DNA of 64,000 nucleotides, from the IMG/VR virus record IMGVR_UViG_2721755646_000011; one strand, 5' to 3'. Position numbers: made by a program. Shown here one piece after another: positions 6,001-9,000 of this stretch; position 1 is the stretch's first letter; each line of letters begins with the position of its first letter. This DNA is from a virus. Lineage: Duplodnaviria; Heunggongvirae; Uroviricota; Caudoviricetes.

Positions 6001-9000
6001 GTCATCCGCTGTTACGGTCAGACGGAGCAGGAAGCTCACGCCCTTCACCACCTTCGGCGTGTCCCAGCGCGCCAGCACCTGATATTCCCCGCTGTCTGCG
6101 GTGACTTCGGCGGTCAGGTGCTGCACCGCTGGCGGCGTGACACCATTCACCGTGCCGCTCTGGTCGCCGTCAAAGTGCGCCCCGTTATCCACGATGGCTT
6201 CTTTTTCCGGTACGTGCTGCACCGCCGTGATGGCAAAGGTGCCGTCCGTGTTTTCCCGGATGGAAACACAGCGGAACAGGCGACGACGCAGTGACGGCAG
6301 GGAGAGTCCCCACACACCGTATGTCTCCACACCATCAGGCAGGGTGCTGACCTGTATCCGGTCCGGCGCGGGGTGTGCAGTGATGGCCACGCTCACCGGC
6401 TTACCGCTGCCGTTAATCAGGTTCACCGTGGCGGCACCTGTCTCCGGCAGGGTCACCTCACGGTCCAGTGTCAGGGTGCGGCTGGCGGCATCGATGGACA
6501 GGATACGTCCGCCGGTCATGGTCCCGGCATAGTCGTTATCACAGATTTCAATAATGTCACCGGGTGTGTGACGCAGCCCCTGTGACCCGAGCGTGAAATC
6601 CACCGTCTGCGTTTCCAGCAGTCCGGTCTTTATCACCCACAGCCCGGCACGGTGGGCCTGACCGCGACTGGTGCAACCGAACGCATCCATCTTCAGCAGG
6701 TTGCGCCCGTAGCGCAGTATGGCTTCCGGGTCTTCCACCAGTTCCGTGGAGGTCTGCCAGCCGTTCTGCGGGTCGGTGTAATTCACCTCCACCGCCGTGT
6801 GGCGGTCCTTCAGGGCGCTGAAGCTGTAGCGGAACCCCACGCCGTTATCATCCACCACCACATCGCTGTTGGTGTACGGCCACACCACATCCGACGGACG
6901 GTCCTGAACGAACGTCAGCGTCTGGCCGTTCCATACCGGCATACAGCGCATCGCCGAGCAGAAATCACTGAGAACGTCCCACGCCTTACGCTGTTGTGAC
7001 AGGTACGCATTAAAGGTCATCCGCGGCTCTGTCCCTCCGAAGCCGTCCGGGACACGCTGGTCACAGTACTGCCCGATGGCATACAGCGCCCACTTGTCCA
7101 CATCCGCCGCCCCCAGACGTTTTCCCATTCCGTAGCGCGGGTGGGTCAGCATGTCCCACAGGCACCAGGCCGGGTTATTGCTGTATGCCGGTTTCAGGCT
7201 GCCGTCCCAGATGCCGCTGTACGTGCGTTTTTCCGGGTCATAGTTTGACGGTACCTGGATGATGCGACCGCGGATATGGTAGTTCACCGTCATCTGCTGA
7301 CCGCCAAACTGCTCCGCATCCACCTGCAGCCCCACAATCGCCGTGTTCGGGTAGCACTGTTTCACATCGATGATTTCGGTGTATGACGACCAGAGCGTCT
7401 TATTCTGCAGCTGGTCCGAGGTGCTGTCCGCTGTCTCCCGGACCATCCGGATGTTAAAAGGACGGGGAGGCAGATTATCCAGAATCACCGACGCCAGAAA
7501 CTGCGAGGTGGTCTTGCCGTTAATGGTGACATCCTTTTCCGTCACCCAGTTACCGTTACGCTGTAACTGAATCAGCAGGCGGACGGATGTCGGGTTTCGG
7601 TCACCCTTTGACGTGGTCTGCACCAGTGACTGCACCCCGAAGGTGACCCGCAGGCGGTCAATGTTCGCGGACGTAATGGTGCGCGTCACCGGTTTTGCCT
7701 TCGTCACTTCCACGCCCAGTCCGGTTTCAGCTCCGGAGGACTCAAAGCCTTCCGGTGGTGTCTGCTCCTGCTCCCCGGCACGCCAGACCGCAGTCACACC
7801 GTGTATCACGGGATTACCGTCCGTGTCCGTCAGCGGGGTTTTGTTCACCAGAATACTCTGCAGCCCCTTCACCGGACCTTCAATCGGCCCTTCACCAATG
7901 GCATCAATCACGCTCATCATCTGCGTGGACTTAAGATTGTCCTTTGCCTCAACCGGCGTGTGCGCCTTGCCGCCACCTTTACCCACTCTGTCCCCCTCTC
8001 CTGTCTGATGTCTGAATCTGTTTATGCCCCAAAAACGACAGGCACCCCGGAGGGTGCCTGTGTCATGACGGAATAAAATTTCTGAATTTCTTCACATTTT
8101 CTGTACGCCCCCGTGGCAGATATCATTCCCGGGCGTTACAGTTTTTTCGGGCCAATAAAAACAAAACTCCCTGTGGTTAATCTTCATTTTCTGTTCCCGC
8201 AGCCTCCATACACTGCGGGATTTTTTTATGCTTTACCCCTGCCGCCCGATAACCACCACCTTCCCGTCACCGCCTTCATCACGGGTACTGATGTCCTGGG
8301 AGATTCGCCGTGAGCCAACCAGCATTTCACCGTAAGGCACCGGCATCGGGTTCCCCTGGGCAATCATGTTATCCAGCGACGAAAAGTACGTGTTCTGTTT
8401 ACCGTTATCCGTTGCCCTGTATTCCGGTGTTTTTGGCTTCGGGGCCAGCATCTGTGCCACACCACCCAGTATCATGCTGGCACCCAGTGAAAACAGCATC
8501 GTGGTGGCAGAAAAACCACCGGCTGCCAGGGCTGAACCCCATAACGCCATCGATGCCCCGGCAGTGAAGAAAGAGCCCACGATGGCTGCCGCCCCCAGCA
8601 CAATCTGCAGTCCACCCTTTCCGGCCCCGGCCAGTCGCGGCACAATGTGGATGACCGTTCCCTCACCCAGCTGTTCGTGAAGACGGGCGTACACCGCCTC
8701 CGGTGCCGTGTCCTCACCGCGAATACGTATCTGGTACCAGCCTTCGTTCATCTGACGGCGGAATCCCGGCATCTGCAGCGACAGGGCACGGATGGCTTCC
8801 GCTGCCGTGTTCACGTACAGGCTGAGGCGGCGGCCAAATCGTTGCAAATCCCCGTGAAGGCAGATGCGTGCCAGTGGCGGTGACGCCAGACAGAATGCGT
8901 TCGTCGTTGCCATTTTTCAGAATACCTCTCCCGTTTACTCAGTTGTTCAGGCAGATGGTGAAGCAGTTCACCGTTGCCGCAGTAAATGGCGGCATGATTG

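Follow-up and report, generated by a model that had tools for sequence, protein, structure and literature searches.

The 246-bp spacer between tail genes I and J of a lambdoid prophage very probably carries an antisense small RNA of the PasB/EcOnc22-24 family

In a stretch of 64,000 nucleotides from the caudoviral record IMGVR_UViG_2721755646_000011 of IMG/VR (the window), the tail genes I and J, both encoded on the minus strand, are separated by a spacer of 246 bp (positions 7987-8232), and the question is what this extra DNA encodes. A preliminary description had taken I and J of lambda to be essentially contiguous, and had seen in the spacer a 31-codon open reading frame (ORF) flanked by hairpins, which could be a small moron, a small RNA (sRNA) or an attenuator inside the tail operon. 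We found every one of these sequence features at its place. The spacer is real, but I and J are 60 nt apart in lambda, so that the net insertion is ~186 bp and lies between the I stop and an ancestral hairpin. A RefSeq record with 99% identity annotates two genes here, gpJ (4588-7986) and, from 8233, the tail assembly protein, with nothing between them. Our analysis indicates that the spacer very probably carries an unannotated allele of the Hfq-dependent prophage sRNA family PasB/EcOnc22-24, antisense to the tail genes (Table 1). Thus, the sRNA and the moron of the earlier proposal were retained, whereas its anatomy had been put on the wrong strand and the attenuator does not explain the extra DNA.

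PasB (pathogenicity-associated sRNA B) is an 83-nt RNA from prophage PP6 of the enteropathogenic Escherichia coli (EPEC) strain E2348/69, mapped to NC_011601.1 from 1466343 to 1466261 on the minus strand (Table S6, PMC8550237). It was validated by northern blotting and is Hfq-dependent, with log2 fold changes of -6.8 and -2.4 in the hfq mutant; it has 37 partners by the ligation and sequencing of interacting RNAs (RIL-seq), and is more abundant under the 'non-activating' condition (PMC8550237). We found that its interval falls in the 240-bp I-J spacer of PP6, where the tail assembly gene ends at 1466255 and gpJ starts at 1466496, both on the plus strand. PasB runs antisense to this gene pair and ends on the last T of a T7 run, at a distance of 6 nt from the I stop. 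In the window, the 3' end of the sRNA is likewise placed on the last T of a T7 run, at the same distance from the I stop. Moreover, the northern probe for PasB, AATCCCGCAGTGATCGCGGAGCT, nearly matches the tail-sense strand of the first hairpin in the window.

EcOnc22/23/24 were reported as peaks of Hfq crosslinking and analysis of cDNAs (Hfq-CRAC) in the Sakai prophages Sp15 (Shiga toxin 1, Stx1), Sp14 and Sp11 (Table S2, PMC4104026), and are RNAs of ~85 nt by northern blotting that are destabilised in an hfq mutant (PMC4104026). The coordinates of that table belong to an older Sakai record and are offset from NC_002695.2 by +135, as calibrated with AgvB1 and Esr41 (Rfam matches), EcOnc06/STnc100, and the StxS Term-seq 3' end relative to tR'. 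After correction, each of the three peaks lies in a different I-J spacer, in its I-proximal half and on the strand opposite to I and J. The EcOnc22/23/24 hybrid reads from RNase E crosslinking, ligation and sequencing of hybrids (RNase E-CLASH; Waters et al. 2017, PMC5286369) contain GCCTGAAAAATAACTCCATAACGTTAATCTTCA. In the Sakai spacer this sequence is on the strand antisense to the tail genes, and it gives an offset of exactly +135. Taken at face value, the coordinates had put the EcOnc22 peak on the J-proximal hairpin, an assignment that was dropped when the calibration moved the peak to the I-proximal half. The offset is +135 for 1.4-2.9 Mb and +133 at 5.1 Mb, and it applies to the table of Tree et al. 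2014 as well as to the 2017 CLASH and 2020 StxS papers; uncorrected Sakai coordinates put features on the wrong side of short intergenic regions.

The spacers of the window, Sakai and E2348/69 align end to end with identities of 73-80%, and over the sRNA the window allele is 76% identical to PasB and 70% identical to EcOnc22. A covariance model of 18 alleles, from which the window type was excluded, gave a single significant match in the 64-kb window, at 8131-8229(+) with 77 bits and a rough E-value of 2.4e-12, covering positions 1-98 of 98, while the next match was AgvB at E = 0.14. PasB shares with the window the I-J locus, the strand, the terminator stem, the U7 tract 6 nt from the I stop, the upstream element, the register of the -10 and the motif beside the terminator, at 73% identity over the spacer. 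On the other hand, its body 5' of the motif has diverged, its terminator loop differs, and its -35 reads TTCACA in place of TTCTGT. EcOnc22-24 occupy the same locus and strand, with 80% identity over the spacer, whereas the Sakai spacer measures 240 bp as compared to 246 in the window and its body sequence differs. The homology, position and strand of the window allele are direct observations, and so are its terminator, the register of its promoter and the lack of conservation of the ORF. Judged by their sequences, PasB and EcOnc22-24 are alleles of one family. EcOnc22-24 are not mentioned in the two PasB papers (PMC8550237; Zhu, Shabalina & Storz 2026 preprint, 10.64898/2026.05.13.724894), so that the equivalence seems not to have been stated previously; the EPEC RIL-seq literature and the CRAC/CLASH literature on enterohaemorrhagic E. 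coli (EHEC) describe the same locus under different names.

Other prophage RNAs did not account for the spacer. The anti-sRNAs AgvB and AsxR (RF02702, RF02703) resemble the I-J RNA as short Hfq-binding prophage sRNAs with a variable 5' part, a conserved 3' terminator and several copies per EHEC genome; however, they occupy the moron site downstream of PR', differ in sequence, and their Rfam models do not match the I-J RNA. AgvB was accordingly rejected as the RNA between I and J, its copy in the window lying elsewhere, at 27463-27524. HnrS (EcOnc10/11/12), a candidate for being multi-copy and prophage-encoded, was also rejected, as its Sakai coordinates are ~5 kb from AgvB and not at the I-J junction. 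An Rfam scan of the spacer at E <= 10 returned noise only, the top match being 'anti-hemB' with 18.5 bits, which merely aligned the terminator.

Among phage records, 147 contain the spacer, most of them belonging to Stx1- and Stx2-converting phages and BP-4795. Of the 5426 complete E. coli genomes, 785 contain it, with a median of 4 copies per genome, and it is unannotated in all of these records. The element thus occurs in about one-seventh of complete E. coli genomes, often in multiple copies, and in most long-tailed Stx phages. The window-type allele itself is found at >=99% identity in 326 complete E. coli genomes and many Stx phages. The preprint used BLAST with a word size of 28 and a query coverage of >75%, and described PasB as mostly single-copy and largely absent from EHEC and EPEC (10.64898/2026.05.13.724894). 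The longest exact word shared with PasB is 17 nt in the window allele and 15 nt in the Sakai allele. Since these words are shorter than the word size, that search counted the E2348-type allele only; the published distribution figures thus cover one allele, and 'mostly single-copy, largely absent' probably does not hold for the whole family. With neither an annotation nor an Rfam model, genome scans keep reporting an unexplained gap with a small ORF at this position.

The anatomy of the cassette was read from the plus strand. The CCCGCAG/CTGCGGG hairpin of the preliminary description is present at 8195-8220, but it had been assigned to the tail-sense strand, and a T-run (T7) follows it on the plus strand only. 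Read in the tail sense, the hairpin is preceded by A7 and followed by AACAGAAAA. It is therefore a terminator for antisense transcription and not for the tail operon. Across 50 distinct variants the stem is near-invariant, one of its arms being fixed by the search pattern, while the loop varies in length (4-17 nt) and the T-run is kept. An invariant stem with a variable loop indicates, at the level of sequence, selection on the terminator structure.

The predicted fold of the sRNA consists of an unpaired body, the terminator and U7. The body is A/U-rich, varies among the alleles and is predicted to be unpaired, and it bears two conserved motifs, AACUCC and GUUAAUCUUCAU (8176-8187). Most columns of the second motif, GTTAATCTTCAT in the DNA, are >=90% conserved between variable flanks, and the motif is predicted to be unpaired. 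Its complement, ATGAAGATTAAC, lies in the 31-codon ORF. For PasB, a seed was proposed just upstream of the terminator (10.64898/2026.05.13.724894). We searched the rest of the prophage for sites complementary to the conserved motif and found none. In L056 12172-12268 and the equivalent copies in tandem arrays, GTTAATCTTCAT is replaced by GGTTAGTCAACAT, while the promoter element and the terminator are kept; if the motif is the seed, this allele would have changed its seed.

The -10 of the window, TATCAT, is in register with TATAAT of E2348/69 and AATAAT of Sakai, and nATnAT is conserved at this position across 92 variants. In E2348/69 a promoter scan found TTCACA-16-TATAAT (11 of 12 consensus bases) on the PasB strand, ending at the aligned -10, and in the window and Sakai alleles the -10 keeps five of the six consensus bases. 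GCGTTA is conserved around the expected transcription start. The 5' end of the window RNA has two candidate positions: ~8131-8135, 7 nt past the -10, or ~8147, which is aligned with the reported 5' end of PasB and would yield an 81-nt RNA. Conservation extends to a second hexamer, TAnnnT at 8137-8142. TGGCAG, upstream of the alternative -10, was considered as a sigma-54 element and rejected, as inspection by eye showed no GC at the -12 position.

Upstream of the putative core promoter, the cassette begins with an A-tract and the half-sites of TCTGA-N6-TCACA. In a second collection of cassettes, anchored on the TCACA side and the terminator, the cassette stood in at least 6 different upstream contexts, and homology always began at the A-tract and TCTGA, which places the left edge of the cassette there. 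Both half-sites are kept, while the central N6 is variable. By its sequence, the element resembles the site of a dimeric regulator (9/10 match to the CRP core) or an UP element. CRP sites have the consensus TGTGA-N6-TCACA, and their centre is at -41.5 in class II promoters and at positions such as -61.5 and -71.5 in class I promoters. The centre of the cassette palindrome, 8088.5, is at -44.5 from a start at 8133, which is not canonical, and at about -60.5 from a start at ~8149. The pattern occurs at 5 sites in the window as against 2.1 expected, and the match alone is not significant. Given the lack of significance and the noncanonical spacing, CRP can be named only tentatively as the regulator of this promoter. 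The higher level of PasB in the 'non-activating' condition may be compatible with catabolite control.

Several points weigh against the assignment of an active family member to the window. Judged from the -10, the RNA should start at ~8133 and measure ~95 nt, as compared to 83 nt for PasB and ~85 nt for EcOnc22. The terminator stem, being invariant, shows no covariation, and the IMG/VR copies were collected by sequence patterns, so that conservation within those patterns arises by construction. The -35 of the window (TTCTGT) is poor, and the consensus scan called no promoter in the window or the Sakai allele; thus, the window allele may be weakly expressed or require an activator. Finally, the sole CLASH partner seen, the coding sequence of yjbJ with EcOnc22/23, rests on 1-2 reads with p = 0.1-0.3, and that hybrid pairs through CCAUAACGUU of the Sakai RNA, a segment that differs in the window allele, where it reads CCCUGUGGUU.

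It could be argued from the weak -35, the 5/6 match at the -10 and the missing consensus call that the window cassette is an inactive relic, a PasB homologue that is not meaningfully expressed, and degraded or promoter-less copies do occur elsewhere, such as the one downstream of sodC in L171. We consider this improbable. The exact window allele is kept at near-identity in the hundreds of genomes and the Stx phages mentioned above, and in it the upstream element, the -10, the motif, the stem and the U-run have all stayed intact. Furthermore, the Sakai allele has an equally weak core promoter, and yet its RNA was detected by northern blotting, Hfq-CRAC and CLASH.

RNA-seq of EPEC lysogens gave baseMean values of ~5 for I and ~15 for J, as compared to 482 and 1082 for pasB (PMC8550237). 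As pasB is abundant while I and J are near silent, the pasB cassette is transcribed autonomously, which is the defining behaviour of a moron. The expression, size, and Hfq binding and dependence of the family come from these published sister alleles, and by analogy the window allele would be expressed in the same way; its seed, promoter regulator and targets are what we infer here. The spacer would then be a moron-type insertion with one gene, a trans-acting Hfq-dependent sRNA oriented head-on to the tail operon. Its upstream element and a sigma-70 promoter would drive an RNA of ~80-97 nt, composed of a mostly unpaired variable body, GUUAAUCUUCAU, an 8-bp GC stem and U7, and ending 6 nt before the I stop. 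During lysogeny, with the late operon silent, the sRNA would be made alone, with Hfq stabilising it, and would presumably pair with mRNAs of the host and of prophages; each allele would have its own set of targets, owing to the variable body.

The sRNA is contained entirely in the late transcription unit, between two cistrons and on the opposite strand, and is perfectly complementary to the intercistronic mRNA; this position is kept in all alleles and in the tandem arrays described below. It may accordingly be proposed that the sRNA acts mainly in cis, by triggering cleavage of the late mRNA at I-J or colliding head-on with late transcription and so tuning J, or that the late mRNA sponges the sRNA upon induction. 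We regard this as unlikely, since the behaviour of PasB and EcOnc22-24 is that of trans-acting, Hfq-bound sRNAs with numerous partners, and since sodC and a lipoprotein gene use the same site, which may be no more than a point that tolerates insertions. We also considered, and rejected, a further sRNA in the tail sense that would end at the J-proximal terminator, as the scan found no promoter on that strand and no such feature is present in the searchable EPEC tables. The conserved block upstream of the J-proximal hairpin is the promoter-upstream element of the cassette, and thus not an RNA body.

The antisense sRNA also explains the 31-codon ORF. The ORF is present as described, but it is not conserved as a protein and appears as a by-product of the sRNA on the other strand. 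Reading of the tail-sense strand of 58 distinct IMG/VR variants, beginning at the aligned start codon, gave peptides of 8 to 54 amino acids that ended in different frames and whose C-terminal halves are unrelated. In ~6 alleles ACG or AGA stands at the aligned start position, and single-base homopolymer changes truncate the peptide to 10-17 amino acids. This variation in length, frame and start codon shows that the ORF is incidental. The peptides have only 'MKIN..EL' in common, which is complementary to the motifs conserved in the sRNA.

A protein-coding moron, in which the ORF encodes a small protein made within or alongside the tail operon, is therefore very improbable. Such a moron would fit the late-operon sense direction of the ORF and the first codons MKIN and the EL/EF pair common to most alleles. 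However, the shared N-terminus exactly complements the sRNA motifs GTTAATCTTCAT and AACTCC, no convincing Shine-Dalgarno sequence precedes the ORF in the window allele, and the peptide itself is not conserved across the variants. Recognition of the spacer as PasB/EcOnc22-24 thus removes a spurious small-protein candidate.

The GC hairpin and T-run before the ribosome-binding site of J are likewise present as the preliminary description had it, but they are an ancestral feature of the junction and not part of the insert. In the window, the hairpin runs from 8061 to 8038 and is followed by CGTTTTT, with the T-run at 8035-8031; it is the sole terminator-like site that the scan called in the spacer. 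Lambda (L130, NC_001416) has in its 60-nt spacer, 15445-15504, the hairpin ACCGCC-TGCG-GGCGGT-TTTGTCATTT just before the J Shine-Dalgarno sequence. Both phages thus have a tail-sense GC hairpin with a T-run at this point, whereas the stem sequence differs, and only ~20 nt separate the lambda I stop from the hairpin. We gathered I-J junctions by their I protein and not by the spacer sequence. In lambda and most relatives, the spacers are of 60-91 nt and without similarity to the window spacer, and the tail-sense hairpin and T-run are also found in the other short-spacer junctions and in most of the insert-bearing junctions examined; the sodC-bearing junction L171 has no obvious equivalent. The presence of the hairpin in lambda and in short spacers implies that it is ancestral to the junction. 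In the window hairpin, one compensatory C-G to T-A variant was observed, with a T.G intermediate.

Q-modified polymerase reads through intrinsic terminators in late lambda transcription. The hairpin would more likely insulate J and the downstream cargo from stray transcription in the lysogen, or stabilise the message, than attenuate late expression; a literature search for a described terminator or role between lambda I and J returned nothing relevant. The alternative is that the spacer is a cis-acting attenuator or terminator module, in which the hairpin at 8061-8031 lowers or gates the transcription that enters J, lom and the tail fibre genes, the remainder being leader. The site is strongly terminator-like in the tail sense (10 bp, 7 GC, T5) and stable in the fold, its position before J is conserved in lambda and nearly all other junction types examined, and its stem carries the compensatory change. 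Nevertheless, we give this module little credence, since the hairpin is already in the 60-nt spacer of lambda and leaves the extra 186 bp unexplained, since Q-modified transcription would pass it in lytic growth with little effect expected, and since the independently expressed antisense sRNA gene accounts for the extra DNA. Between the tail-sense T-run and the J Shine-Dalgarno sequence, tandem TCAGACA heptamers are present in 2 to 5 copies among otherwise near-identical spacers.

A moron, in the sense of Juhala and Hendrix, is extra DNA between genes that are adjacent in relatives, with its own promoter and terminator and expressed from the prophage. The spacer is polymorphic in presence, with 60-91 nt in lambda and most relatives as compared to 246 here. 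The preliminary description would have been refuted by a spacer universally present and untranscribed in related phages; instead, the insert is optional, and homologous copies are transcribed in lysogens. The inserts sit between the I stop and the ancestral hairpin and are of several types, namely the sRNA cassette, an antisense sodC and a sense-strand lipoprotein-like ORF. This variety of cargo at one point makes the I-J junction a moron hotspot. The prophage sodC morons use the same insertion point and the antisense strand, but their cargo is protein-coding and ~650-850 bp long, and sodC is absent from the window. The sodC unit of L171 has a terminator of its own, and after it comes a PasB-like body of full length (87 bits) with the CCCGCAG terminator, without the PasB promoter. 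Enterobacter prophages carry at I-J a tail-sense ORF of ~160-185 amino acids with a lipoprotein-type signal peptide (L164 2115-2782 and L167 2106-2769); it has no Pfam match and is followed by the usual hairpin and T-run.

Tandem cassettes of different alleles were found at a single junction in 11 of the fetched loci. In these arrays the covariance model finds three cassettes on one strand, ~220-450 nt apart, and in some of them at least one further, more diverged cassette is seen by eye (possibly four in all). Every cassette comes with an upstream element, a -10, a body and a terminator of its own, and the linkers look like duplicates of the 3' end of gene I. The preprint gives 28 kb as the minimum distance between PasB copies (10.64898/2026.05.13.724894), and the tandem arrays therefore appear to be unreported. 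The series of alleles, which share their ends and vary in the body, and the arrays are a natural experiment in the target diversification of prophage sRNAs. While the PasB/EcOnc22-24 family is already known, the shared family identity, the I-J hotspot that also takes sodC and the stacked cassettes appear to be new.

A broader reading, which is tentative and on balance doubtful, is that the I-J junction serves as a landing pad for modular, recombining sRNA cassettes, each with a constant promoter/operator and terminator around a hypervariable targeting body. Alleles would be swapped between prophages and stacked up to three or four, so that each lambdoid prophage would give its host its own lysogeny-specific trans-regulatory repertoire. 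As each cassette is antisense within the late operon, induction would automatically sponge or silence the sRNAs, or the sRNAs would trim J, coupling host reprogramming to the lysis-lysogeny state. Through the palindromic operator, a single host regulator, possibly cAMP-CRP, would control the family.

Table 1. Positions of the features of the I-J spacer, its neighbours and related loci (window coordinates unless a locus is named)
Feature	Position	Strand	Basis and details
sRNA gene, probable PasB/EcOnc22-24 family allele	8131..8227	+ (antisense to tail operon)	covariance model, alignment, fold
Putative core promoter of sRNA	8099..8126	+	-10 TATCAT 8121-8126; 16-nt spacer; weak -35 TTCTGT 8099-8104
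Promoter-upstream element, cassette left edge	8075..8099	+	A-tract, TCTGA-N6-TCACA (8081-8096), TTT
Conserved single-stranded motif GTTAATCTTCAT	8176..8187	+	adjoins terminator; putative seed or Hfq-contact region
Intrinsic terminator of sRNA	8195..8227	+	8-bp stem 8195-8202/8213-8220 (TCCCGCAG/CTGCGGGA), 10-nt loop, T7 8221-8227
31-codon ORF	8092..8187	-	judged non-coding; antisense image of sRNA body
Tail-sense hairpin and T5	8031..8061	-	10-bp stem, 7 GC, loop TCCG; terminator scan, fold
J leader	7987..8030	-	heptamer TCAGACA x2 (8002-8015); Shine-Dalgarno GGAGAGGGGGA (7991-8001); GTG at 7986
Tail tip/host-specificity gene J	4588..7986	-	ORF list; Pfam FNIII-A_GpJ; RefSeq gpJ; GTG start at 7986
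Tail assembly gene I	8233..8913 (longest ORF)	-	ORF list; Pfam Lambda_tail_I E = 1e-15; stop codon 8233-8235
AgvB (convergent with STnc100)	27463-27524	+	Rfam gathering score
STnc100 (convergent with AgvB)	27526-27718	-	Rfam gathering score
sok	32775-32949	-	Rfam gathering score
DicF	39680-39731	+	Rfam gathering score
sodC at I-J	L171 136-988; L152 2148-2863	antisense to tail genes	Pfam Sod_Cu
Tandem arrays	L102 5860-6627; L028 4416-4982; L055 8171-8740; L108, L112, L114, L034, L056, L060, L061, L075		

For gene I the table gives the longest ORF; the RefSeq homologue starts at 8814. Among the collected I-J junctions, contigs assigned to unrelated taxa (Streptomyces, Neobacillus, Shewanella, Chromatium, Bradyrhizobium and others; L131, L134-L147, L158-L162 and L169) carry an I-J region that agrees with lambda in I-protein identity and spacer length, some of these contigs being ~48.5 kb long, or that matches an E. 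coli prophage at 97%. They are almost certainly laboratory or sequencing contamination.

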